Positions 291 to 60,631 of a stretch of 64,000 nucleotides of DNA are shown here, piece after piece. The stretch spans positions 21,628-85,627 of the forward strand of contig CAZEYP010000003.1 of assembly GCA_964515925.1 (NCBI GenBank). The letters are read 5' to 3'. Position 1 is the first letter of the stretch. Each line of letters opens with the position of its first letter. A program made the translations under genes and the position numbers. The notes beneath the pieces are model-generated. The model was not told the origin of the DNA. It saw only the letters and a list, made by a program, of their open reading frames with translations, and did not search any database. The stretch comes from an uncultured Nitrospirota bacterium (GTDB lineage: Bacteria > Nitrospirota > Thermodesulfovibrionia > Thermodesulfovibrionales > JdFR-85).

Positions 291-1121
291 ATGACAACCG
301 ATTCCTCAGAGGGTGCCATTGGGATTTTTGATTCAGGCATAGGCGGGCTTACAGTGGTAAGAGAGATAATGAACCTCATGCCCCATGAGGACCTGATTTA
401 TCTTGGTGATACTGCAAGGGTGCCCTACGGGATAAGGTCAAAGGAAACCGTAAGAAGATATGCGATGGAAAATACCAGATTTTTACTAAAGCAGAACATA
501 AAGATGATAGTGGTAGCCTGCAACACAGTCTCTGCTGTTGGGCTTGATGCTGTAAGAGGAGTAACCAGTGTTCCTGTGGTTGGGGTTTTAAGGCCAGGTG
601 CTCAGGCAGCTGTAAAGGCAACGGTGAACAAGAGGGTAGGGGTGATAGGCACTGAGGCAACCATCACAAGCAGTGCATACCAGAGGGCTATAAAGGAAAT
701 AGACAGTACTGTGGAGGTAAGCACAAGGGCCTGTCCACTTTTTGTTCCACTTGTTGAAGAAGGATGGCTTGATGGTGAGGTGGTAGAGGCCATAGCAAGC
801 AGATACCTTATGGAGCTGAAACAGAGCTGTATTGATACACTTGTGCTTGGCTGTACCCATTATCCATTGCTTAAAGGAACTATCAGTAAGGTTATGGGAG
901 ATGGGGTGAGGCTTATTGATTCTGCTGTTGAGACAGCAAAGGTGGTAAAAGAGCAGCTTGAGGTAGAGGGGAAGTTGAAAAAACACAGTAATTTCAGTGG
1001 CCGCAGGATTTATTTTGTAACCGACTCACCTGAGAGATTTAAAAGGATTGGCACATGGTTTCTTGGGCATGAGATAGAGGAGATATTTAAGGTGGAGATA
1101 GGGGCAGGAAGTAGAGGGTAG
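291..1121 (+). CDS. murI: glutamate racemase
   Basis: IGIFDSGIGGLTV, VVACNTVSA and LVLGCTHYP motifs carry the two catalytic Cys. ATG 291 is preferred over the TTG at 267 because it gives a typical N-terminus. Confidence 0.9.
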   Translation: MTTDSSEGAIGIFDSGIGGLTVVREIMNLMPHEDLIYLGDTARVPYGIRSKETVRRYAMENTRFLLKQNIKMIVVACNTVSAVGLDAVRGVTSVPVVGVLRPGAQAAVKATVNKRVGVIGTEATITSSAYQRAIKEIDSTVEVSTRACPLFVPLVEEGWLDGEVVEAIASRYLMELKQSCIDTLVLGCTHYPLLKGTISKVMGDGVRLIDSAVETAKVVKEQLEVEGKLKKHSNFSGRRIYFVTDSPERFKRIGTWFLGHEIEEIFKVEIGAGSRG

Positions 1122-1153
1122 GGTGTAGGGTGTAGCGTGTAGGGGATAGGGGG
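1111..1153. repeat. heptamer tandem array (GTAGGGT/GTAGCGT/GTAGGGG, 6 units)
   Basis: Reads gtagagg gtagggt gtagggt gtagcgt gtagggg atagggg. It covers the last codons and the TAG stop of murI. Confidence 0.9.
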
Positions 1154-2496: not shown

Positions 2497-4269
2497 ATGA
2501 ATATAAAAGAATATCTCAAGACCCATTTTCCATTAAATATATCGTTTAAGATCAAGGTTGGTACCCACACAGCACTGATTGCACTTGCAGTGGTTATTGG
2601 TGCACTCAGTGGTGGTGCCAATATGCTTTTCAGGACAACCCTGGAGTTTTGCAAGGAGATGATATTTCATAATGGCTCTGAACTGCTTGGAATAATGGAA
2701 GGTGGCTTTAACAGGGTTTTGATACCTCTTTTACCTGCATTTGGAGCCCTGCTGTTAGTGCCTCTATCCTACCGTTTTCCCGGCGAGGTAAATGGATACG
2801 GGTTTCCATCTTTTCTTGAGAAGGTAAACCTTCAAGACGGTGTCTTTAAACTAAGAACGATAATAATCAAGATCATTGCACCCAGTCTTACCATAGGCTC
2901 AGGTGGGTCTGCAGGAGTGGAAGGGCCGATTGCACAGATAGGCGGGAGCATTGGCTCTCTTATTGGACAGCTATTCAGGGTCTCTGGAAACAGGATGAAG
3001 CTATTGATTGCAGCAGGTGCTGCAGGTGGTATTGCTGCCACCTTTAATGCGCCCATTGCAGGTGTTATGTTTGCTACAGAGATAGTGTTGCTTGGTAACT
3101 TTGAGCTTACCTCCTTTGGTGTAATAGTTATCTCTGCTGGAATGGCAACGGCTGTTTCCAGGATTTATTACGGTTCGTCTCCTGTTTTTGCAGTGCCTCA
3201 ATACGACCTGAAGGGGATTTACGAGACACCCTTTTATCTGTTCCTTGGTCTCTTTGTTGGTTATGTAGCTGTCTTTTACATAAAGATATTTTATGGGATA
3301 AAGGACTGGTTTAGCTCACTGAAGATCAATCCTTATACAAAGCCAGTACTTGGTGCCCTTATGATGGGGGCAATAGGCATATTCTTTCCACAGATATTAA
3401 GCGATGGCTATGAGTATATTGAAGAGGCCTTTCGTGGAGACATGGTTTTTTCCATTATGTTTATTCTTATATTTCTGAAGATATTTGCCACCTCCATTAC
3501 CCTTGGCTCAGGTGGTGCAGGTGGTGTTTTTGCTCCTGCACTTTTTATTGGTGCCATGACTGGTGGGGCCTTTGGCGCCTTTGTCCATCACCTCTTCCCC
3601 ACTATAACCTCATCACCTGGTGCATATGCAATGGTTGGTGTTGGTGCATTTCTTTCCGCTGTTACCCATGCCCCGCTTACCGGTATGTTTCTGCTATTTG
3701 AGATGACAGGCAATTACAAGGTAATCATTCCCATTATGTTTGCAACCACTATAGGAATCTTTGTGGCCAGAAGGATGATAAAAGACTCTATTGATACCTA
3801 TGAGCTTTCCCGTAAGGGGATAGATATGCATGCTGGCCGTGAGGCAACCATACTTAGCACCATATATGTAAGAGATGTTATGAGGAGAGACTTCCTTACA
3901 GTTCGAGACAAGGTGAATCTGAAGGAATTCCTTGATCTGGTTATCAATGGAGGAGGGGGTTTTTACTATCCAGTTGTCAACTCAAAGGGCGAGATGGTGG
4001 GTATCATCTCCATGCAGGATGTACGAAAGGTGCTTTTTGAGGAGTATATTAAGGAGATAGTTACCGTTGGTGAGCTTGCTACAGAGGATGTCATGACGCT
4101 TTATCCTGATGATAATCTGATGACGGCAATGAAACTGTTTGCTGACCTTGATATAGAGGAAATTCCCGTGGTAAGCAGGGAAAACCCTAAACAGGTAATT
4201 GGAATGCTCAGAAGGGGAGATGTTATAACGGTTTACAACAGAGAGGTGTTGAGGAAACACTCTATTTAG
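2497..4269 (+). CDS. ClC-type chloride channel/transporter with C-terminal CBS pair
   Basis: GSGGSAGVEGP, FNAPIAGVMFATE and HAPLTGMFLLFEMTGNY are ClC selectivity-filter-type motifs. Two CBS-like repeats sit at the C-terminus. The start is ambiguous (ATG 2497 or TTG 2473). Confidence 0.85.
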   Translation: MNIKEYLKTHFPLNISFKIKVGTHTALIALAVVIGALSGGANMLFRTTLEFCKEMIFHNGSELLGIMEGGFNRVLIPLLPAFGALLLVPLSYRFPGEVNGYGFPSFLEKVNLQDGVFKLRTIIIKIIAPSLTIGSGGSAGVEGPIAQIGGSIGSLIGQLFRVSGNRMKLLIAAGAAGGIAATFNAPIAGVMFATEIVLLGNFELTSFGVIVISAGMATAVSRIYYGSSPVFAVPQYDLKGIYETPFYLFLGLFVGYVAVFYIKIFYGIKDWFSSLKINPYTKPVLGALMMGAIGIFFPQILSDGYEYIEEAFRGDMVFSIMFILIFLKIFATSITLGSGGAGGVFAPALFIGAMTGGAFGAFVHHLFPTITSSPGAYAMVGVGAFLSAVTHAPLTGMFLLFEMTGNYKVIIPIMFATTIGIFVARRMIKDSIDTYELSRKGIDMHAGREATILSTIYVRDVMRRDFLTVRDKVNLKEFLDLVINGGGGFYYPVVNSKGEMVGIISMQDVRKVLFEEYIKEIVTVGELATEDVMTLYPDDNLMTAMKLFADLDIEEIPVVSRENPKQVIGMLRRGDVITVYNREVLRKHSI

Positions 4270-4272
4270 GCT

Positions 4273-4362
4273 GTAGGGGGTAGCGTGTAGGGGGTAGTTT
4301 TTAGTTTTGAGTGTTTAGTGTTGAATCAACCATACCTCCCTACACCCTACACCCTAAAAATT
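4273..4362. repeat. inverted heptamer arrays (GTAGGGG-type + TAGTTTT-type ... TACACCC-type)
   Basis: Left arm gtagggg gtagcgt gtagggg gtagttt ttagttt; right arm tacctcc(c) tacaccc tacaccc taaaaat. Confidence 0.85.
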
Positions 4363-6280: not shown

Positions 6281-6442
6281 TATAAGGTGTAGGGGGTAGG
6301 GTATAGGGGGGAGGGGGTAGTAAAAATCCCTCCCCCCTATACCCCTTGAACCCTCATCTTCAAATCCTAAATTCTAAACAATCCCAATTCACTAACTTAC
6401 TCAAGTTTCCTTTAGAATTTAGTGCTTCGTGCTTAGAATTTG
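6281..6442. repeat. two consecutive heptamer-built palindromes (G/C-rich, then TAGAATT-type)
   Basis: A perfect 14-bp inverted repeat (6302-6315 / 6328-6341) and a perfect 12-bp inverted repeat (6367-6378 / 6411-6422). Confidence 0.9.
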
Positions 6443-12423: not shown

Positions 12424-12486
12424 TTCTGATATAATTAATTTTAGATTTTAGATTTCTGATTTAAGATTTATAGTTTTAGATTTTAG
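12424..12486. repeat. heptamer tandem array (ATTTTAG/ATTTCTG/ATTTAAG type, about 9 units)
   Basis: Reads ttctgat ataatta attttag attttag atttctg atttaag atttata gttttag attttag. Confidence 0.8.
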
Positions 12487-25441: not shown

Positions 25442-25861
25442 ATGGATAAGGACTTTGAGATTCTTGATATCTCTGGCGATGTGGGTATAAGAGTATTTGG
25501 TGAGAATCTTGAAAAGCTTTTTATAAATGCTGCCAGAGGGTTATACCATTTAATAACTGAAAACAGTAATATAAACTCCTCAAAGACTGTTGATGTCAAC
25601 GTTTATGCAGAAAACCTTGATGGTTTGCTTGTTGGCTGGCTGAATGAACTGATTTTCCAGTTTGATACATACGGGTTCCTGGGCAGGGAGATTGAGATAA
25701 AAAATCTTTCAGAAAACAGGATTGAGGCAACCATTTTTGGTGAGGACTTTGACCCTCAAAGACACGAAAAGGGCCTTCTTCTTAAGGCAGCGACCTACCA
25801 TAACCTTAAAATAGAAAAACAAAACGGTCTCTGGAGTGTAGAGGTTATTTTTGATATATAA
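25442..25861 (+). CDS. archease (RtcB activator/chaperone)
   Basis: 139 aa with N-terminal FEILDISGDVGIRVFG and C-terminal KAATYHNLKI. Located directly upstream of rtcB. Confidence 0.85.
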   Translation: MDKDFEILDISGDVGIRVFGENLEKLFINAARGLYHLITENSNINSSKTVDVNVYAENLDGLLVGWLNELIFQFDTYGFLGREIEIKNLSENRIEATIFGEDFDPQRHEKGLLLKAATYHNLKIEKQNGLWSVEVIFDI

Positions 25862-26047
25862 ATTGCGTTTATTGCGTTGATAGCGTTAATTGCGTTTATC
25901 GAGTTCATTGCGTTCTTTGCGTTAATAGCGTTAGTTGAGTGTAGGGATTCTGGTTTTACTACACCCTACACGCTACTCCCTACACCCTGTTTTTTTACAC
26001 CCTGAAGTGTTTAGAATTTAGAATTTAGAAATTAGGATTTGAAAATT
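25861..26047 (+). repeat. composite element: nonamer array (NNTTGCGTT x8-9) + TACACCC-type heptamers + TAGAATT-type heptamers
   Basis: 9-nt periodicity over 25861-25941; tacaccc tacacgc tactccc tacaccc over 25960-25987; tttagaa x3, attagga, tttgaaa over 26010-26044. Confidence 0.9.
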
Positions 26048-26061
26048 ATGGGGGGTGCATT

Positions 26062-27510
26062 ATGTCAGGGCAGGTTACCATAGAAAGGATTGATGAAACA
26101 AGACTCAAGGTGCCCATGGGTTATGTTCAGGGAATGAGGGTTGAAGGTATTGTGTATGTTGACAGAGTGCTCCAGCAGTATTTAGAGCCAGATGCCATCA
26201 AACAGGTTGCCAATGTTGCCACACTGCCAGGCATAGTTGGCCACTCTTTTGCAATGCCTGATGTTCACACAGGTTATGGTTTTTCTATTGGAGGGGTAGC
26301 TGCCTTTGATGTCAACGATGGGATAATTTCACCAGGTGGTGTTGGCTACGACATTAACTGAGGGGTAAGGCTCCTGAGGAGCAACCTCACACGTTCTGAG
26401 GTGCTCCCCAGGATAAGGGACCTCGTGGAGGTCCTGTTTAAAGAGATACCCTCTGGGGTTGGTTCAAAAGGAAGGCTGAAGCTCTCAAGAAAAGACCATG
26501 AGAGGCTCCTTCAAAAGGGTGCCCGCTGGGCAGTAGAGCAGGGTTATGGAACAGCAGATGACTTACAGTATATTGAATCTGGCGGTGCCATAGAAGGTGC
26601 TGAGCCTTCATTGATTAGCGAAAAGGCCTACGAACGGGGAAGAGCCCAACAGGGAACCCTTGGCTCTGGAAATCACTTTCTTGAGATACAGTATGTGGAA
26701 GAGGTTTACGACGAGAAGGCTGCCAGCATATTTGGTCTTTTCCCGGAGCAGATAACCCTGATGATTCACACTGGCTCAAGGGGATTTGGACATCAGGTAT
26801 GTACTGACTTTTTACAGATTATGGAAAGGGCTGTCAGGAAATACGGGATAAGTCTTCCTGATAGAGAACTTGCCTGCGCACCCTTTAACTGCCAGGAGGC
26901 ACAGGATTATTTTGCTGCAATGAAGGCAGCAGCGAATTACGCATGGGCAAACCGTCAGTGCATAATGCATTGGTGTAGAGTTGCCTTTATGAAGGTTTTG
27001 AGTGTTTCTGAGGGTGAACTTGGTATGCAGATTGTTTATGATGTTGCTCATAATATTGCAAAAGTGGAAGAGCATACTGTGGACGGTAAGAAAACTAAAC
27101 TTATAGTGCACCGTAAAGGTGCAACAAGGGCATTTTCTGCAGGACATCCCGAGATATCGGAAAAATACAGAGATATTGGTCAACCAGTGTTAATACCTGG
27201 AGATATGGGCAGGGCATCCTATGTTCTGGTAGGTACTGAAAAGGCAATGAAGGAGACCTTTGGCTCTACATGCCATGGTGCAGGAAGAGTGCTTTCAAGA
27301 CATCAGGCCATTAAAAGGGCAAAGGGTAGGGCTATCTGGAGAGAGATGGAGGATGCAGGTATACTGGTAAGAAGTGCTGGAAAGAAGACCCTTGCAGAGG
27401 AGATGTCGGAAGCTTACAAGGATATTTCAAATGTGGTAGATGTGGTAGAGAAGGCAGGCATATCAAAGAAGGTTGCAAGGTTGCGTCCTCTGGGGGTTGT
27501 AAAAGGTTAA
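26062..27510 (+). CDS. rtcB: RNA-splicing ligase RtcB with an in-frame TGA (codon 100) at the conserved active-site Cys: candidate selenoprotein
   Basis: Track ORFs 26062..26361 and 26401..27510 share one frame, with a single TGA at 26359-26361. The sequence GGVGYDIN[TGA]GVRLLRSNL matches the RtcB motif [10 protein letters not shown]. Downstream His motifs are intact ([23 protein letters not shown]). The RtcB call is confident; the Sec interpretation carries about 0.55. Confidence 0.8.
26378..26407 (+). promoter_or_regulatory. candidate SECIS-like hairpin downstream of the rtcB UGA
   Basis: GGAGC-A-ACCUCA [CACGUUC] UGAGGU-GCUCC forms 11 bp with one bulged A. The stem starts 17 nt after the UGA. 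The loop lacks the classical leading G, so the call is tentative. Confidence 0.4.
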
Positions 27511-27513
27511 TGT

Positions 27514-28734
27514 ATGAGTCAAACAATCCTTAACATCATTGTCGTCCTCATACCTCTTCTGCTTTTAATCCTTTTTCTTTACAGCTTCCGATACCTTAAA
27601 AGGGCAAGCAAACTGAAGGAGGAGATGAAACAATCAGAAGTGGGGTTTGTTGTTGATACATTTCACGAGCTTGTTGCAAAGTTAAAGGAAAAGGAAAAGG
27701 AGCTTGAGGAGTTAAGAAAAAAGGCAGAGGAGAGGGCAGACGATGTAGTAAGCTACAGTGACAACATAATAGAAAGTGTGCCAAGCGGTGTGGTGAGTTT
27801 TAATAATGAGCTTATAATAACCAGTGTTAACTCTTCTGCATTGAAGATACTTGGGCTTGAGGGGAAGGAGATAGAGAGGAAAAGGTATTCAGAGGTATTT
27901 TATGAACCTGTGAAGGGATTAATAGAGAAACAGGATATAGTTAAGCGTGCAGAGTATCTTTATGAGACTGGTAAAGGAAAGAGATGGCTTGGTCTTACTA
28001 TTTCGCCGCTTTATAACAGAAAGAAAGAAAAGATAGGAAAGGTGCTGATATTTAGTGACCTTACCGAACTTAAAACCCTTGAAAGGCAGGTCAGGTTAAG
28101 AGAGTGGCTTTCTTCTCTTGGAGAGGTCTCCCTTGGTATTGCTCATGAGTTGAGAAACCCGATGGCAGTAATTTCAGGCTACAGTAAGCTTCTTAAAAAG
28201 GATGCATCTGAAAGACAGCAGGCAATAGTTGATGCTATAGCAGAGGAAATCAATGCCATGGACCGCATAATTAATGACTTCCTTTCATTTGCGAAACCTG
28301 TTGTGCCTCAGACAGAGATGGTGAATCTTAGAGAAATTGTTACAGAGATTTTACAGGGACAACTTGATGGGAAAAGTTCAATAGACTGTGATGAAAGGCT
28401 TGGAGATTGTGTGATTAAGACTGATCCCGTACTTTTTAAACAGGCTGTTTCAAACATCATAAGAAATGCAATTGAAGCTATGCCAACAGGGGGGAGGCTC
28501 TTGGTTGAACTTAAATGTTCTGAAAGTAGGGCAATTTTTATAGTAGAGGATACTGGAAGCGGTATCCCTGACGAGATAAGGGAAAAGATATTTTTGCCCT
28601 TTTTTACAACTAAAGACAGAGGTACTGGCCTGGGTCTTTCGATTGTGCATAAAAACATTACTACCCTTGGCGGAAACATCAGGGTTGAGAGTAAAAAGGG
28701 TATGACCCGTTTTATTGTTGAGATACCCGGTTGA
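27514..28734 (+). CDS. membrane-anchored PAS sensor histidine kinase
   Basis: N-terminal TM helix, coiled coil, PAS ([19 protein letters not shown]), H-box [13 protein letters not shown] and G-box GTGLGLSIV. Starts 3 nt after the rtcB stop. Confidence 0.85.
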
Positions 28735-28774
28735 TTTCGGATATAAGATTTCAGATTTATGATGTCAGATTTGG
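28733..28774. repeat. heptamer tandem array (GATTTNN, 6 units)
   Basis: Reads gatttcg gatataa gatttca gatttat gatgtca gatttgg. It starts inside the TGA stop of the kinase gene. Confidence 0.8.
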
Positions 28775-35200: not shown

Positions 35201-35460
35201 AATCCTAAATTCTAAGCACCAATTTCTAAACCCTTAAGGGTGTAGGGGGTAGGGTGTAGTAAAAACTCCCCTACTTTCTTAAAACCCCAAACACTTATCT
35301 TCAAATTCTAAATTTCTAATATCTAAATCCTAAACAAATCCCAAGCTCTAAATTTCAAACTACAAACTCACTTATTTTCATTCAATCGTAACTTTTAACA
35401 AAAACTAACGCAATCAACGCAATGAACGCGATAAACGCAATTAACGCAATCAACGCAATA
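35201..35460 (-). repeat. composite element (same architecture as 25861-26047, opposite strand)
   Basis: On the plus strand: AATTCTA-type heptamers, GTAGGGG-type heptamers, more AATTCTA-type units, then AACGCAANN nonamers x6 (35403-35460). Confidence 0.9.
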
Positions 35461-35466
35461 TACCAA

Positions 35467-36009
35467 TTACTTGGTTTTCTTTGTTTTTAAGAATCTTTCC
35501 ATTTCAGAATATATGCATCCGCAGTAGTTTTGCCTGTAGAAATCAAGCTCCCTTGACATCCTCATGCCATCTCGAAAACCCTCTCTGAAGTCTTCAAAGT
35601 AAAACTCCACATCGAATTCTTCCTGAATCTCCTTGCCTATAGCCTTAATGAGATCTATCTTCTGATAGGGGCTTACCAGAAGTGTGGTAGAGAAGGCATC
35701 CATGCCAAGCTCTTTTGCAACCCTTGCAGCCTCTCTGAGTCTTACCCTGTAGCAAAAACTGCACCTGTTTTTTTCATCGTATACAACAGCCCTCAGGAAT
35801 TCCTTCAGTCCATAATGATCCTTAAAGGTTATATCAAACTTCCAGAGGTTCTGGAGTTGTTTAAGGGTCTCCAGTCTCTTTTTGTATTCCCTATAGGGGT
35901 GTATATTGGGATTAAACCACAATCCATGGTAGTTAATACCCCTTTCTTTAAGCGTTTTTAGTGGAAAAAGTGCACAGTTGGCACAGCAGATATGCATAAG
36001 AAGCTTCAT
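35467..36009 (-). CDS. queH: epoxyqueuosine reductase QueH (DUF208)
   Basis: MHICCANC...CSFCYRVRL...NYCGCIYSE cysteine pattern of QueH. Confidence 0.8.
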   Translation of the reverse strand: MKLLMHICCANCALFPLKTLKERGINYHGLWFNPNIHPYREYKKRLETLKQLQNLWKFDITFKDHYGLKEFLRAVVYDEKNRCSFCYRVRLREAARVAKELGMDAFSTTLLVSPYQKIDLIKAIGKEIQEEFDVEFYFEDFREGFRDGMRMSRELDFYRQNYCGCIYSEMERFLKTKKTK

Positions 36010-38063: not shown

Positions 38064-38189
38064 ATAGGGTGTAGGGGGTAGGGGGTAGTTATTAGTTTTA
38101 GTTTTGAATGCTTAATAAATGACCTTAACTTATCACTCAAAACTCAAAATTCACTACACCCTACACGCTACCCCCTATTCCCTATCTTT
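38064..38189. repeat. large imperfect palindrome built from heptamer arrays
   Basis: Left arm atagggt gtagggg gtagggg gtagtta ttagttt tagtttt; right arm aaactca aaactca ... tacaccc tacacgc taccccc tattccc tatcttt. Confidence 0.88.
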
Positions 38190-38238
38190 ATTATATCAGA
38201 AAAGGGTTTTATTTACTTTTCTCTGGTCGGAGATTCAC

Positions 38239-41252: not shown

Positions 41253-41282
41253 ATCGACCTCAATGATGAATTGTTAATTTGT

Positions 41283-41337
41283 GTATTGGTTATTGGTGTA
41301 TTAGTTACTACACCCTACACGCTACCCCTTACCCCCT
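41283..41337. repeat. heptamer arrays (GTATTGG-type followed by TACACCC-type)
   Basis: Reads gtattgg ttattgg tgtatta gttac tacaccc tacacgc tacccct taccccc. Confidence 0.85.
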
Positions 41338-41342
41338 AATAT

Positions 41343-45909: not shown

Positions 45910-45984
45910 TGGCTGGGGCGGGAGGACTCGAACCTCCAAATGGGAGAGCCAAAATCTCCTGCCTTGCCGTTTGGCTACGCCCCA
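45910..45984 (-). tRNA. tRNA-Gln (anticodon UUG), CCA encoded
   Basis: Hand-folded cloverleaf: acceptor UGGGGCG/CGCCCCA, a 3-bp D stem, anticodon arm GGAGA-UUUUGGC-UCUCC, and T arm GGAGG-UUCGAGU-CCUCC. Confidence 0.88.
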
Positions 45985-46770: not shown

Positions 46771-46848
46771 CGGGGCGTGGCGCAGTCTGGTTAGCGCACT
46801 CGCTTGGGGTGCGAGAGGTCGGCCGTTCGAATCGGCTCGCCCCGACCA
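46771..46848 (+). tRNA. tRNA-Pro (anticodon GGG), CCA encoded
   Basis: Acceptor CGGGGCG/CGCCCCG, anticodon arm CUCGC-UUGGGGU-GCGAG, and T arm GGCCG-UUCGAAU-CGGCU. Confidence 0.9.
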
Positions 46849-47015
46849 TAATACCTTGATTTTTAAAGATTTTCACACAATATCCCCTGTCATATGCCCT
46901 TTTTGGGGCATTGAGGGCTGTATATTTTGTAGAAATAAAAAGAAATAAAAATTTACATAGCTTTTTTAAAAGCATTAAACTAAACATAAAAGGACTTCTG
47001 AAAGGGGAATTTTTT

Positions 47016-52594: not shown

Positions 52595-52680
52595 TTTTTA
52601 ACTTCATTAAATTATTTTTATTTGTTTAATTATGATAAAATATCTTGGATTTTAAGTAAAAGGGGGAGATATAAAATAAT

Positions 52681-52821
52681 ATTGCGTTCATTGCGTTTAT
52701 TGCGTTAATTGTGTTTATCGGGTTCATTGCGTTCATTGAGTTTATCGCGTTAAATGGGTTTATTGGGATTGTGGTGGAGTGTTTTTACTACTCCCTACAC
52801 GCTACACCCTACACCCTGAAG
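52681..52821 (+). repeat. composite element: nonamer array (ATTGCGTTN x about 10) + TACACCC-type heptamers
   Basis: attgcgttc attgcgttt attgcgtta attgtgttt atcgggttc attgcgttc attgagttt atcgcgtta aatgggttt, then tactccc tacacgc tacaccc tacaccc tgaag. Confidence 0.9.
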
Positions 52822-52833
52822 TTATTTTAAGCT

Positions 52834-53526
52834 ATGCTTCTTGATAATATCAGCACCGTATACAAACGTATCTCCCATGCAGCCATGAGGGCAGGCCGTG
52901 ACCCCTCTGAGGTGGAGCTTATTGCTGTTACAAAGACGGTTCCTGCTGAAAAGATAAAAGAAGCCATAGACCTTGGTGTGAGACTGATTGGAGAAAACAG
53001 GGTTCAGGAGGCAAAGGAAAAGATTGAGGAGTTAAGAGATAAGATACCCGAGACTGTTCAATGGCACATGATAGGACATCTACAGAAAAATAAAGTTCGA
53101 CCAGCGGTGATGCTTTTTGATATGATACAGTCTGTAGATAGCCTTTCTCTTGCTGAGAGAATAAACCGTATAGCGACAGAATACGGGAAGGTACAGAGGG
53201 TGCTTGTTCAGGTAAAACTCTCGGAGGAAGAGACGAAACACGGAATTGAAGAAAGGGAGCTTGAGCACTTACTTGCTGAAATAAGGGGTATGGAAAACCT
53301 GCTGGTTGAGGGGCTTATGACCATTCCTCCCTATTTTGAAGACCCTGAGCTGGTAAGAACCTACTTCAGGAGATTAAGGCAGTTAAAGGAACAGATGAAC
53401 CAGCGGGGATTTAACCTCAGGCACCTTTCAATGGGCATGTCTGGAGATTATGAGGTTGCCATTGAAGAGGGTGCAACTATGGTAAGAGTGGGAACAGCAA
53501 TCTTTGGAAGGAGGATTTATAAATGA
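52834..53526 (+). CDS. yggS: YggS family pyridoxal-phosphate homeostasis protein
   Basis: LIAVTKT (PLP Lys), IGHLQKNK and LSMGMSGDYEVAIEEGATMVRVGTAIFG. Confidence 0.87.
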   Translation: MLLDNISTVYKRISHAAMRAGRDPSEVELIAVTKTVPAEKIKEAIDLGVRLIGENRVQEAKEKIEELRDKIPETVQWHMIGHLQKNKVRPAVMLFDMIQSVDSLSLAERINRIATEYGKVQRVLVQVKLSEEETKHGIEERELEHLLAEIRGMENLLVEGLMTIPPYFEDPELVRTYFRRLRQLKEQMNQRGFNLRHLSMGMSGDYEVAIEEGATMVRVGTAIFGRRIYK

Positions 53527-58347: not shown

Positions 58348-58389
58348 TGATTTATGATTTTAGATTTTAGATTTATGATTTATGATTTA
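58348..58389. repeat. heptamer tandem array (TGATTTA/AGATTTT, 6 units)
   Basis: Reads tgattta tgatttt agatttt agattta tgattta tgattta. On the minus strand it encodes the last 5 codons and the stop of clpA. Confidence 0.85.
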
Positions 58390-60631
58390 TGGTCTTCAAA
58401 AATATTCCTTTTTCCCCAGAATAGTCAACCTCCACAGTGCCGCCTTTTCGTAGTTTTCCAAAAAGTATCTCATCGGATAGTCTGTCTTTTATTTCATCCT
58501 GAATCACCCTTGCAAGGGGTCTTGCGCCAAATCGAGGGTCAAAACCCTTACGGGCAAGAAAGTTCCGTGCTGAATCTGAGAGTCTTAATATGATTCGTTT
58601 CTGATTTAGCTGCCCCTGAAGCTCTTTTATGAATTTATCTACCACGCTGAGCATTATTTCGTGATTCAGTGGCCTGAAGTTGATAATTGCATCCAGTCTG
58701 TTTCTGAACTCCGGGCTGAACAGACGGTTTATCTCTTCCTTCGACCTTGAAAGGGCATCGTGGTTTCTGTTTCCAAACCCTATTGGGCTTTGCTGCATAA
58801 GCTGAGCCCCTGCGTTGGAGGTCATGATCAGTATTACATTTCTGAAGTCAGCCTTTTTACCGTTGTTGTCAGTCAAAGAGGCATAATCCATCACCTGAAG
58901 CAGTATGTTGAATACATCGGGATGGGCCTTTTCAATCTCATCAAGAAGCAGTACTGCATAGGGGTATCTCCTGATGGCATCAGTAAGGAGCCCTCCCTGG
59001 TCAAATCCAACATAACCTGGCGGTGCACCAATGAGGCGGGCTACCGAGTGCTTTTCCATGTATTCACTCATATCAAACCTGATAAACTGCACACCAAGGG
59101 TGATTGCGAGCTGACGGGCTACTTCTGTTTTCCCAACTCCTGTTGGGCCTGTGAAAAGAAAAGAACCAATTGGCTTTTGAGGCTCTCTCAGGCCTGCCCG
59201 TGCCCTTTTTATGCTGGATACCAGTTTGTGTATGGCCTCATCCTGTCCAAAGACCACAGATTTCAGATCCTCCTCCAGTTTCCGAAGCCGCTCGGTCTCA
59301 GTGGTAGAAATAGTTCGAGCAGGGATACGTGCTATCCTTGAGACGATTCTCTCTATGTCCTTTATACCAACTACCTTTCTCTGCCCCTTTAGTTTGACCT
59401 CTGCAGCAGCCTCGTCAATCACATCTATCGCCTTGTCAGGAAGGAATTTATCGCTGATATGTTTTGCTGACAGTTCGGCCGCTGCTTTTAATGCACCCTC
59501 TGTATAACGGATACCGTGAAACTCCTCGTAATAGTTTCTTAATCCCTTGAGTATCTTTACAGTTTCCTCTATAGTGGGCTCCTGTAACTCAACCTTTTGA
59601 AACCTTCTTGACAGAGCACGGTCTTTTTCAAAGTACTTTTTGTATTCCTCAAAGGTGCTTGCACCTATGCATCTTATTTTTCCAGAGGCAAGAAAGGGCT
59701 TAAGGATATTGGAGGCATCCAGTGAGCCACCACTTGTTGCCCCTGCACCAACCACAGTGTGAATCTCGTCAATGAACATAATGGCACCTTCTATCTGCTG
59801 AAGCCTCTTTATTGTTGCCTTCAGTCTTGCCTCGAACTCTCCCCGATACTTGGTGCCTGCAATCATACCACCAAGGTCAATGGCAAATATCTTTGCATCC
59901 TTCAGTATATCTGGCACATCGCCGGAGGCAATCTTTATTGCAAGCCCCTCAACAAGGGCTGTCTTTCCTACACCTGGCTCTCCCACAAAGACTACATTGT
60001 TTTTTCTTCTTCTGGCAAGTATTTGGATCGTCCTTTTCAGCTCTTCCTGCCTGCCAACAATAGGGTCTAACTCTCCCTTTCTTGCCTTCTCAACAAGCTC
60101 TGTGGTGTATAGCTCCAGAGGGTCTGCCTTCTGTTTTCCCCTTTCTCTGCGATGTGGCTGCTCATCGGGCTCTCCGAATTCATAATCCTCTGCCTCCTGC
60201 CTTTTAGAGACACCATGGGAGATATAATCAAGTATGTCAAGCCTGCTGATTCCCTCGGCATCAAGGAGGTCAACTGCGTAGGAGTCTTCCTCGTAAAATA
60301 TAAAGGCGAGCAGGTCTCCAGCATCTGCCTCCTGTCTTTCAGCAGCCCTTACATGCTCTATAGCCCTTGATATTACGCGCTGGAAGGCCACTGTGGGTTG
60401 TGGCTGCTCATCAGGTCTCAACCTTTTAGTAGGTATGTAATTTTCAAAATACTCCTCAAGTGACTGCCTTAAAAACTCAAGATCAGCGCCACAGTTATGG
60501 AGTATCTCTCTACCCCATTCATCCTCCAGTATTGCGGAAAGCAGATGCTCCACAGTTACATATTCATGCCCTTTCTGTTTTGCCCTTTTTATAATCCTTT
60601 GAATAGATGTCTCTATATCTTTACTTAACAT
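58373..60631 (-). CDS. clpA: ATP-dependent Clp protease ATP-binding subunit ClpA
   Basis: N-domain, two AAA+ modules ([16 protein letters not shown]) and an IGF loop. Follows clpS. ATG 60631 is preferred over the track start 60685. Confidence 0.9.
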   Translation of the reverse strand: MLSKDIETSIQRIIKRAKQKGHEYVTVEHLLSAILEDEWGREILHNCGADLEFLRQSLEEYFENYIPTKRLRPDEQPQPTVAFQRVISRAIEHVRAAERQEADAGDLLAFIFYEEDSYAVDLLDAEGISRLDILDYISHGVSKRQEAEDYEFGEPDEQPHRRERGKQKADPLELYTTELVEKARKGELDPIVGRQEELKRTIQILARRRKNNVVFVGEPGVGKTALVEGLAIKIASGDVPDILKDAKIFAIDLGGMIAGTKYRGEFEARLKATIKRLQQIEGAIMFIDEIHTVVGAGATSGGSLDASNILKPFLASGKIRCIGASTFEEYKKYFEKDRALSRRFQKVELQEPTIEETVKILKGLRNYYEEFHGIRYTEGALKAAAELSAKHISDKFLPDKAIDVIDEAAAEVKLKGQRKVVGIKDIERIVSRIARIPARTISTTETERLRKLEEDLKSVVFGQDEAIHKLVSSIKRARAGLREPQKPIGSFLFTGPTGVGKTEVARQLAITLGVQFIRFDMSEYMEKHSVARLIGAPPGYVGFDQGGLLTDAIRRYPYAVLLLDEIEKAHPDVFNILLQVMDYASLTDNNGKKADFRNVILIMTSNAGAQLMQQSPIGFGNRNHDALSRSKEEINRLFSPEFRNRLDAIINFRPLNHEIMLSVVDKFIKELQGQLNQKRIILRLSDSARNFLARKGFDPRFGARPLARVIQDEIKDRLSDEILFGKLRKGGTVEVDYSGEKGIFLKTINHKS

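Follow-up and report, generated by a model that had tools for sequence, protein, structure and literature searches.

Short repeats dispersed between bacterial genes take several forms. Those of the enterobacteria, the bacterial interspersed mosaic elements (BIMEs), combine repetitive extragenic palindromic (REP) sequences of ~35 nt with linkers, are associated with RAYT (REP-associated tyrosine) transposases, and bind IHF and gyrase. The short tandemly repeated repetitive (STRR) sequences that Mazel et al. are said to have described in 1990 reportedly form families of differing tandem heptanucleotides dispersed in the intergenic DNA of one cyanobacterial lineage, their function not being known. 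To our knowledge, no ordered composites with nonamers have been reported for STRR arrays. In Xanthomonas and Nostoc, GGGNATC and GGGGA(C/T)T heptamers occur genome-wide in intergenic DNA and are over-represented between co-directional open reading frames (ORFs); in the GGGNATC type, the G-rich strand is non-coding where the repeat lies no more than 50 bp upstream of an ORF and coding where it lies at or over a stop codon (Rehm et al. 2015, PMC4692102). The TAACTGA direct repeats of marine Beggiatoaceae, cyanobacteria and Bacteroidetes lie a few nucleotides upstream of the starts of unrelated genes, also within operons; the linked genes were likewise noted to miss an adjoining Shine-Dalgarno sequence, and a post-transcriptional role through S1, Csp or CsrA-type proteins was proposed (MacGregor 2015, PMC4679880). 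Here we describe three composite elements of tandem nonamers and heptamers that precede rtcB (locus 1), yggS (locus 2) and a DUF2905 gene (locus 3) in a 64,000-nt stretch of DNA, hereafter the window, from an uncultured Nitrospirota bacterium (GenBank assembly GCA_964515925.1, contig CAZEYP010000003.1, positions 21,628 to 85,627). The window is part of a 93.8-kb JGI metagenome contig, and the proteins that it encodes assign it to Nitrospirota. Searches of the literature turned up no account of such repeats in this phylum.

The reading that we favor, and to which we give an even chance of being right, is that the three loci belong to a lineage-specific, genome-wide family of modular short-tandem-repeat mosaics that occupies 5′ leaders and intercistronic spacers in a Thermodesulfovibrionia-like Nitrospirota clade. 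The mosaics would be RNA leaders that are read through, not gene-specific switches, and would turn over by slippage and recombination. What carries this reading was observed directly: a modular grammar, a polarity within the clade, restriction to intergenic DNA, rapid turnover, constraint on the nonamer, and a position downstream of consensus promoters.

The original prediction of three composite elements with a common module order was confirmed both by reading the loci and with Tandem Repeats Finder (TRF). In all three, TRF detected period 9 at 5.9-8.6 copies and period 7 at 3.3-4.4 copies, in keeping with STRR-like tandem arrays as we defined them (a 5-11-nt unit, at least three copies head to tail). 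Read on the strand of the downstream gene, a [NNTTGCGTT] array comes first, then a short segment rich in G, a (G/T)TTTTAC loop and three to four TACNCNC units, the latter on the same strand as the nonamers (four units at 25960-25987, four at 52789-52816 and three at 35238-35258). The C-rich heptamers end in ACACCCTGAAGT in two loci and in ACACCCTTAAGG in the third, just as predicted, and the TAGAATT-type array foreseen for two copies corresponds to the TTTAGAA/TTAGGAT arrays that come last in loci 1 and 3. The order is therefore common to the three loci but the content is not identical, because GTAGGG is absent from locus 2 and locus 3 has an additional TAGAAT-type array and ~90 nt separating the nonamers from the hairpin. 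GTAGGG, expected in every copy, is thus found in loci 1 and 3 only. Similarly, the small hairpin expected from pairing of GTAGGG with CCCTAC appears in the centroid folds of these two loci, and locus 2 has only a GGAGU/ACUCC version. The genes had been named correctly (rtcB, PF01139; yggS, PF01168; DUF2905, together with QueH, by Pfam). Upstream of them lie the archease gene (rtcB), a divergent recN-like gene with an SMC_N/AAA_23 domain (yggS), and queH (DUF2905). No Shine-Dalgarno sequence adjoins the yggS ATG (52834), and there is none at the DUF2905 ATG (35188).

The arrays are highly non-random, and to that extent the prediction was right. Within the window, [NNTTGCGTT] arrays are confined to the three predicted sites. 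Two adjacent TTGCGTT cores (TTGCGTTNNTTGCGTT, up to two mismatches) match 19 times in the window against 0.21 expected, and 18 of the 19 matches lie inside the three loci (25861-25941 (+), 52680-52769 (+) and 35407-35460 (-)). The elements had also been said to end 14, 12 and 12 nt before the start codons. This arithmetic is correct, but it runs from the end of whichever repeat happens to be last; from the homologous landmark ACACCCTGAAGT, the ATG is about 53, 11 and 43 nt away. It is the choice of non-homologous end points that makes the spacing from the start codon look constant.

The nonamer itself is constrained. Over 216 units, its profile reads N, A (71%), T, T/A/C (70/16/14%, never G), G, C/A/G/T (79/12/6/3%), G, T, T, with T.G.GTT invariant and 110 of 127 core substitutions at two positions. 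The identical invariant positions recur in 905 more units from other metagenome lineages. This profile is unlike the neutral decay of slippage products, and it is compatible with recognition by a factor. An ATT-GCG-TTN frame is always open, giving ORFs of 23-42 amino acids that would encode hydrophobic (I-A-F/L)n peptides. Hidden small ORFs were nevertheless rejected: in 213 of 216 units, G occupies unit position 7, which is four-fold degenerate in the open frame; the frame varies with respect to the upstream stop; and no consistent start codon or Shine-Dalgarno sequence is present. Recent copy-and-paste or concerted evolution of the three arrays was rejected as well, since arrays are on average as similar within genomes (0.63) as between them (0.64), even though those of rtcB and DUF2905 resemble each other most (0.83 at variable positions).

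The three loci are the largest examples of a widespread family and not a separate element class. The CCCTACN/GTAGGGN pattern matches 31 times in the window, against 1.0 expected, at ~9 intergenic sites, and companion heptamers include TAGTTTT, TAGTGTT, ACTCAAA, TTTAGAA, ATTTTAG, GATTTCA and TGATTTA (Table 1). Arrays of 7- or 9-mers, assembled from these modules, are found in 10 of the ~21 spacers of at least 40 nt, a count that rests on our own rough gene calls. In a TRF census of 259 kb, comprising the window, the loci of the Nitrospirae metagenome-assembled genome (MAG) S009_28 and syntenic relatives, periods 7, 9 and their multiples predominate and 0 of 71 arrays lie inside a called gene. 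When one genome per species was scanned for three nonamer units, matches in many phyla were mostly perfect 9-mers or coding repeats; heterogeneous nonamer arrays with the same partner modules were concentrated in S009_28 (~14 loci), and the family modules are common to this MAG and the syntenic relatives. Metagenome contigs hold many further heterogeneous nonamer arrays, partnered by other modules. The nonamer was rejected as a universal motif, the homogeneous TTGCGTT-core arrays of many phyla being mostly perfect 9-mers or coding repeats unrelated to the family. Such perfectly homogeneous [CTTTGCGTT]n arrays, of 7-14 units, occur at loci L003, L028, L035, L037, L040, L044 and L090, in unrelated phyla that include Actinomycetota, Chloroflexota, Bacteroidota and Gammaproteobacteria, and CT is by far the commonest spacer between homogeneous TTGCGTT cores.

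Within the clade, the elements are not random, and their strand is oriented with respect to the gene that follows. The TTGCGTT strand of the nonamer is the coding strand in nine of ten independent co-directional spacers, and the single exception (L038) is doubtful owing to weak flanking gene calls. Nonamer arrays begin between -9 and +13 nt relative to the upstream stop codon; in three genomes the first unit takes its initial two bases from the archease TAA. Arrays of the TTTAGAA/TTTAGGA type occupy the coding strand in seven of seven co-directional spacers and, in divergent spacers, are directed to the nearest start. Single-arm G-rich arrays lie on the coding strand at stop codons and C-rich arrays near starts: at 1118 and 41308 the sense strand is the G-rich one, -4 and +4 nt from a stop codon, and in the three composites it is the C-rich one, at 16-73 nt from the start. 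The rule of Rehm et al., with G antisense before an ORF and sense at a stop, thus holds, in an informative sample of only ~5 because complete G...C palindromes obey a strand rule automatically. A strand-specific constraint in transcribed DNA speaks for a factor that recognizes the RNA or the non-template strand, or else for selection against one orientation.

Comparison with relatives reveals a rapid turnover of the elements. We used syntenic 20-kb blocks in which YggS or archease identity is 80-91%. The archease-rtcB spacer measures 200 nt in the window, 189 nt in GCA_027071435, 202 nt in GCA_964539375 and 60 nt in GCA_054013935 (no value for GCA_054046125). The queH-DUF2905 spacer measures 278 nt in the window, 134 nt in GCA_027071435 and 1 nt in GCA_054013935, where the genes abut (no value for GCA_964539375 and GCA_054046125), and the recN/yggS spacer 239, 302, 118 and 83 nt in the window, GCA_027071435, GCA_054013935 and GCA_054046125, respectively (no value for GCA_964539375). 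In relatives with 87-91% protein identity, orthologous spacers lack the element altogether (the 60-nt archease-rtcB spacer, the abutting queH and DUF2905, and the 83-118-nt recN/yggS spacers), which does not support a gene-specific regulator. Between archease and rtcB, GCA_964539375 has the module order of the window, GCA_027071435 has nonamers with TAGTGTT and TAGAAAT arrays and misses the CCCTAC module, and the repeat-free GCA_054013935 retains a Shine-Dalgarno sequence. The 134-nt queH-DUF2905 version holds only decayed nonamers and TAGAAT arrays, and the 302-nt recN/yggS version has an additional GAGTGTT hairpin and TTTAGGA arrays. Heptamer arrays are likewise gained and lost in further spacers of the syntenic blocks. 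Between filled and empty sites the entire spacer is exchanged, and neither a duplication nor shared termini are present, whereas a transposon or a miniature inverted-repeat transposable element (MITE) would leave a clean insertion with terminal inverted repeats and a target-site duplication.

In contrast to these differences between relatives, three more assemblies from this population match the window at 99.97-100% identity over 3-20 kb, arrays included, with 0 gaps. Since the population assemblies are nearly identical and the orthologous spacers differ or are empty, the elements are stable over short time scales and wholly replaced between relatives, and the genes manage without them. Hypermutable or phase-variable contingency loci were rejected, array length being constant within the population. 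In the same-population assemblies L305-L307, pipelines called yggS 17 codons short (213 amino acids), probably because its true start has lost its adjoining Shine-Dalgarno sequence to the repeat element; the N-terminus MLLDNIS, which begins at 52834, is kept in relatives. Assembly L307 breaks inside the yggS element, at 52789.

The arrays are probably located in transcribed leaders and intercistronic spacers, as they lie downstream of recognizable promoters. The promoters that can be recognized in this organism are near consensus, such as the TTGACA-17-TATAAT of the HU gene and the TGATATAAT found in front of several genes. An extended -10 precedes the yggS element (Table 1), which sits between an old AAAGGG(GGA) sequence and the ATG and separates the two. 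At locus L088 of S009_28, a 260-nt nonamer-hairpin-CCCTAC leader comes after a terminator and TGATATAAT. That the elements are gene-specific switches or promoter cassettes is unlikely, given that they come and go between close relatives.

Based on these observations, we propose the following layout. On the coding strand, a mosaic would start a few nucleotides from the upstream stop or just past a promoter with G/U-rich [NNTTGCGTT]n and/or [GTAGGGN]n and [TAGTGTT]n, continue through a short hairpin into C/A-rich [CCCTACN]n, and often close with A/U-rich [TTTAGAA/TTTAGGA]n just before the Shine-Dalgarno sequence or start codon. RNA polymerase would transcribe through the mosaics, which would then act, if at all, as RNA, with [UUGCGUUNA], [CCCUACA] and [UUUAGAA] as the repeat units. 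Their role is likely that of a generic cis-acting leader sequence. The U.G.GUU nonamers could provide a reiterated single-strand binding platform, and the A/U-rich run, which contains AGGA/AGAA, may stand in as an SD-like or S1-type initiation region, because two of the three downstream genes (yggS and DUF2905) have no adjoining Shine-Dalgarno sequence. Slippage and recombination involving whole units, and not cut-and-paste transposition, would create and replace the mosaics.

Several results weigh against this reading. In folding, the whole elements do not surpass shuffled sequence (z = -0.9, 0.05 and 0.44), and a stable overall RNA structure was rejected on these z-scores of about 0. The suggestion that the native orientation keeps the ribosome-binding region open was rejected as well: accessibility from the partition function was 0.40 for native, 0.50 for reverse-complement and 0.38 for shuffled sequence, and native exceeded reverse complement at the start region in only six of 16 cases. 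Outside the clade, nonamers in co-directional spacers are antisense in 33 cases and sense in 14, many of them clustered. The polarity therefore belongs to the elements of this lineage and not to the motif, and the fixed polarity of the original prediction stands for the arrays of the clade and not beyond. The genes flanking the MAG loci were called with a crude home-made caller, although most flanking ORFs exceed 200 amino acids. The promoters are predictions from consensus and conservation alone, and a factor that binds the repeats is putative. Finally, presence and absence among relatives fits equally well with elements that do nothing for the host.

Two further candidates were set aside. 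A regular expression for canonical G-quadruplexes (four G3+ tracts, N1-7 loops) matched only at 6292-6353 in the window and in none of the three composites, and G-quadruplex formation was rejected as the purpose of the CCCTAC arrays. A known RNA family was rejected because Rfam gave no gathering-score match to the elements; it reported a single tRNA in the window, and an E-value scan of two elements returned one spurious sub-threshold match.

A neutral or selfish satellite is a doubtful but serious rival explanation. Slippage and recombination products would spread up to constrained sequence (a stop codon, a Shine-Dalgarno sequence or a promoter), and polarity and constraint would come from purifying selection against harmful orientations or from a sequence preference of the generating process, with no benefit to the host. 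The variable presence and swapped modules at orthologous sites of close relatives would be expected, as would the functionally unrelated downstream genes, the filling of spacers from stop codon to ribosome-binding site, and the missing folding and accessibility signals. However, in more than 1100 units drawn from several lineages, five of the nine positions of the nonamer hardly vary at all, which neutral decay would not yield. Each of the three module types also keeps a strict polarity, and the arrays are stable within the population.

A bolder proposal can also be made, which we consider improbable. The N-A-U-H-G-N-G-U-U nonamer, with its 9-nt period, and its partner heptamers might form a lineage-wide cis-regulatory grammar that is read on the transcript or the non-template strand by a putative Nitrospirota factor and sets read-through or translation of the downstream gene. 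Candidate readers, proposed equally tentatively, would be a single-strand nucleic-acid-binding protein or a NusG/sigma-type partner of the elongation complex. If true, this would amount to a genome-scale layer of post-initiation control carried by rapidly evolving repeats.

The original prediction favored a 5′-regulatory or promoter-bearing cassette. Its first half agrees with our preferred reading, as the elements do sit in 5′ leaders and intercistronic spacers, but no promoter match lies inside them. A promoter-bearing or terminator-plus-promoter cassette, which we find quite unlikely, would use the TTTAGAA/TTAGGAT arrays as phased TAGAAT/TAGGAT -10 sequences with a TTTAGA -35 exactly three units upstream, so that the downstream gene gains its own start after the element has split an operon. 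TAGAAT does agree with TATAAT at five of six positions, keeping A2 and T6; the 7-nt phasing yields TTTAGA-N17-TAGGAT in loci 1 and 3; the longer arrays of S009_28 contain promoter-like matches of 9/12 in sense orientation; and a promoter requires the strict sense polarity that the TTTAGAA-type module has. Yet a consensus scan found no sigma-70-type promoter (-35/-10 at 16-18 nt) and no extended -10 TGnTAnAAT inside 25861-26047, 52681-52821 and 35201-35467, although promoters of this organism are near consensus, and TGnTAnAAT occurs 24 times in the window (13.3 expected). Matches of the type TTTAGA-N17-TAGGAT that can be read by eye in the elements reach only 8/12, and match counts in array-rich loci do not exceed those of shuffles. 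The yggS copy lies between a conserved promoter and the ATG without any TAGAAT module, and in relatives the same genes are served by spacers of 1-60 nt. No intrinsic terminator (GC-rich hairpin with a T run) was found by scanning the three spacers. The TAGAAT-type module may still hold a weak internal promoter. The original prediction also raised cooperative binding of a protein. A double-stranded-DNA array whose 9-bp direct repeats are coated cooperatively, as iterons, plasmid-centromere heptads or MetJ boxes are, by a nucleoid-associated protein or a regulator is very unlikely: direct repeats with a conserved core, variable spacer dinucleotides and arrays of 6-17 units would suit it, but with a 9-bp period neighboring sites do not stay on the same face of the helix, the arrays are found downstream, not upstream, of promoters and within operons, close relatives with the same genes lack the sites, and orientation follows the direction of transcription, which indicates reading at the single-strand or RNA level.

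Table 1. Repeat modules of the three composite elements and other family members in the window
Feature	Coordinates	Strand	Remarks
rtcB element: nonamer array, 9 units [NNTTGCGTT]	25861-25941	+	first unit on archease TAA stop
rtcB element: small hairpin GTGTAGGG, loop with GGTTTTAC, then CCCTACAC	25939-25971	+	in minimum-free-energy and centroid folds
rtcB element: C-rich heptamers [TACNCNC]x4, T7 run, then ACACCCTGAAGT	25960-26008	+	
rtcB element: TTTAGAA/TTAGGAT-type heptamer array	26010-26047	+	then Shine-Dalgarno GGGGGGTG 26050-26057, rtcB ATG 26062
yggS element: nonamer array, 10 units	52680-52769	+	3′ end decaying to TTGGGTT/TTGGGAT
yggS element: GGAGT / TTTTTAC loop / ACTCC hairpin, then [TACNCNC]x4 ending ACACCCTGAAGT	52776-52822	+	
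DUF2905 element: nonamer array, 6 units	35407-35460	-	starts 6 nt past queH stop codon (35467-35469)
DUF2905 element: first TTTGAAA/TTTAGGA/TTTAGAA-type array	35300-35365	-	
DUF2905 element: GTAGGGG-AG-TTTTTAC, then [TACNCCC]x3, then TTAAGG	35232-35274	-	
DUF2905 element: second TTTAGAA/TTAGGAT array	35201-35230	-	DUF2905 ATG 35188
Extended -10 promoter-like TGATAAAAT	52633-52641	+	conserved in four genomes; 39 nt upstream of yggS element
G-rich arm only, [GTAGGGT]n	1111-1151	+	overlaps upstream stop codon
Palindrome [GTAGGGG]n, [TAGTTTT/TAGTGTT]n, [CCCTACA]n	4266-4357	+	between stop codon and Shine-Dalgarno + ATG
TTCTAAA/TTTAGAA arrays and 17-bp G/C hairpin with TTTTTAC loop	6278-6460	-	upstream of gene starting 6253
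[ATTTTAG]7	12438-12486	+	3 nt after extended -10 TGATATAAT at 12427-12435
[GATTTCA]n	28733-28772	+	gene 3′ end
Palindromic GTAGGG/GAGTTTT...AAAACTA/CCCTAC	38064-38190	-	directly downstream of TGATATAAT (38198-38190), upstream of Shine-Dalgarno + ATG 38042
Sense-strand G-rich heptamers, then AATACCA-type array	41277-41340	-	heptamers 4 nt past stop codon
[TGATTTA]n	58348-58391	+	convergent spacer; copy number different in a relative

Candidate sites of transcription pausing would be the nonamer arrays and the GTAGCGTG-containing arrays. A GTAGCGT variant unit in the G-strand arrays at 1125-1140, 4280-4292 and 41313-41325 (-) makes these read GGGGGTAGCGTG, which is identical at 11 of 12 positions to what we take to be the E. 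coli ops/RfaH pause element, GGCGGTAGCGTG. The GGGGGTAGCGTG arrays carry the consensus-pause features G-11 G-10 ... G-2 T-1 G+1 on the non-template strand, directly past stop codons. This resemblance may be coincidental.

Other observations concern repeats elsewhere. In another Nitrospirae lineage (L146, metagenome contig Ga0315298_1001008, 2850-5130), GCGTT nonamer/octamer arrays alternate with three tandem units of ~105 nt, each made of four small hairpins that are individually followed by GGAAT(T), and reminiscent of CsrB/Rsm-type GGA decoy RNAs. Close to these arrays is a MITE-like element with ~28-bp inverted ends (GGCAATAACTCAATTTATGAAACAAAAT), which is also present in MAG L.E.N.5_1 (L009, L066, L098 and L114). 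Virophage-like contigs (L279 and ~10 similar IMG/VR contigs, e.g. L267, L277 and L283) that encode Sputnik V18/19 minor capsid and phage tail-collar domains bear, every 2-3 kb, an intergenic element of ~120 nt with inverted [GTAGGGT]3 / [ACCCTAC]3 ends and an identical core. The heptamer is identical to that of the window and the biological context is unrelated. Phage carriage of the family was rejected, the viral CCCTAC-pattern matches that were inspected (nonamer matches were not part of this check) coming from the unrelated virophage-like contig L279.

Within the window, the tRNA gene reported by Rfam lies at 45913-45984 (-), and a second tRNA at ~46780-46860 (+) emerged from the alignment of the MerR-methyltransferase spacer and is kept in all relatives. 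In the window, neither tRNA spacer holds any repeat array; in the relative L239, heptamer arrays lie downstream of the second tRNA. The rtcB gene (26062-27510) has an in-frame TGA at 26359-26361, precisely at the metal-binding active-site cysteine (GYDIN*GVRL), which corresponds to Cys98 of P. horikoshii RtcB. Gene calls of rtcB are split at the same residue in three relatives (L243-L245), and two hairpins lie 3′ of the TGA codon (fold z = -2.1). The gene probably encodes a natural selenocysteine-containing RNA ligase RtcB; the only literature match for such a protein is an engineered Sec98 RtcB (PMC4150793).

Spacer repeats with long units (STRR, GGGNATC and TAACTGA) were first recognized decades ago, and no function has yet been established for them. 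To these the clade adds several unit types combined in an ordered and polar way, a 9-mer in which the invariant positions suggest sequence-specific recognition, and natural pairs of filled and empty orthologous spacers, which are ready-made comparisons for the effect of repeats on downstream expression. The arrays also matter for annotation, as they break assemblies, yield spurious small ORFs and part genes from their old Shine-Dalgarno sequences.

Similar to the BIMEs, the mosaics are intergenic, often between co-transcribed genes, are built from ordered short motifs with imperfect palindromes, and are probably transcribed and strain-variable; their tandem 7- and 9-mers set them apart, by description, from the ~35-nt REP palindromes. 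With STRR sequences they have in common that tandem heptamer families are dispersed in the intergenic DNA of one lineage, and the two show no sequence similarity. Like the TAACTGA repeats, they contain direct heptamer repeats close before the starts of unrelated genes, also within operons, and precede genes that lack a Shine-Dalgarno sequence (two of three here), although unit and host phylum are different and several unit types, including a 9-mer, form a polar mosaic of up to ~280 nt. The GGGNATC repeats resemble them in being genome-wide intergenic tandem heptamers with a G3 tract, an excess between co-directional ORFs and no tie to particular gene functions, and single-arm GTAGGGN/CCCTACN arrays obey the same G-strand position rule. 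In contrast to GGGNATC repeats, the unit sequence differs, units are combined in fixed order with nonamer and A/T-rich arrays, and the G- and C-arms often pair as hairpins; moreover, the at least four G3 tracts with short loops of the quadruplex-forming type are absent from the three composites, and such a motif appears only once in the window because GCG units interrupt the arrays. Taken together, the mosaics share an intergenic, genome-wide, heptamer-based and position-biased character with known systems, and their polar multi-unit order, constrained 9-mer and host phylum distinguish them.

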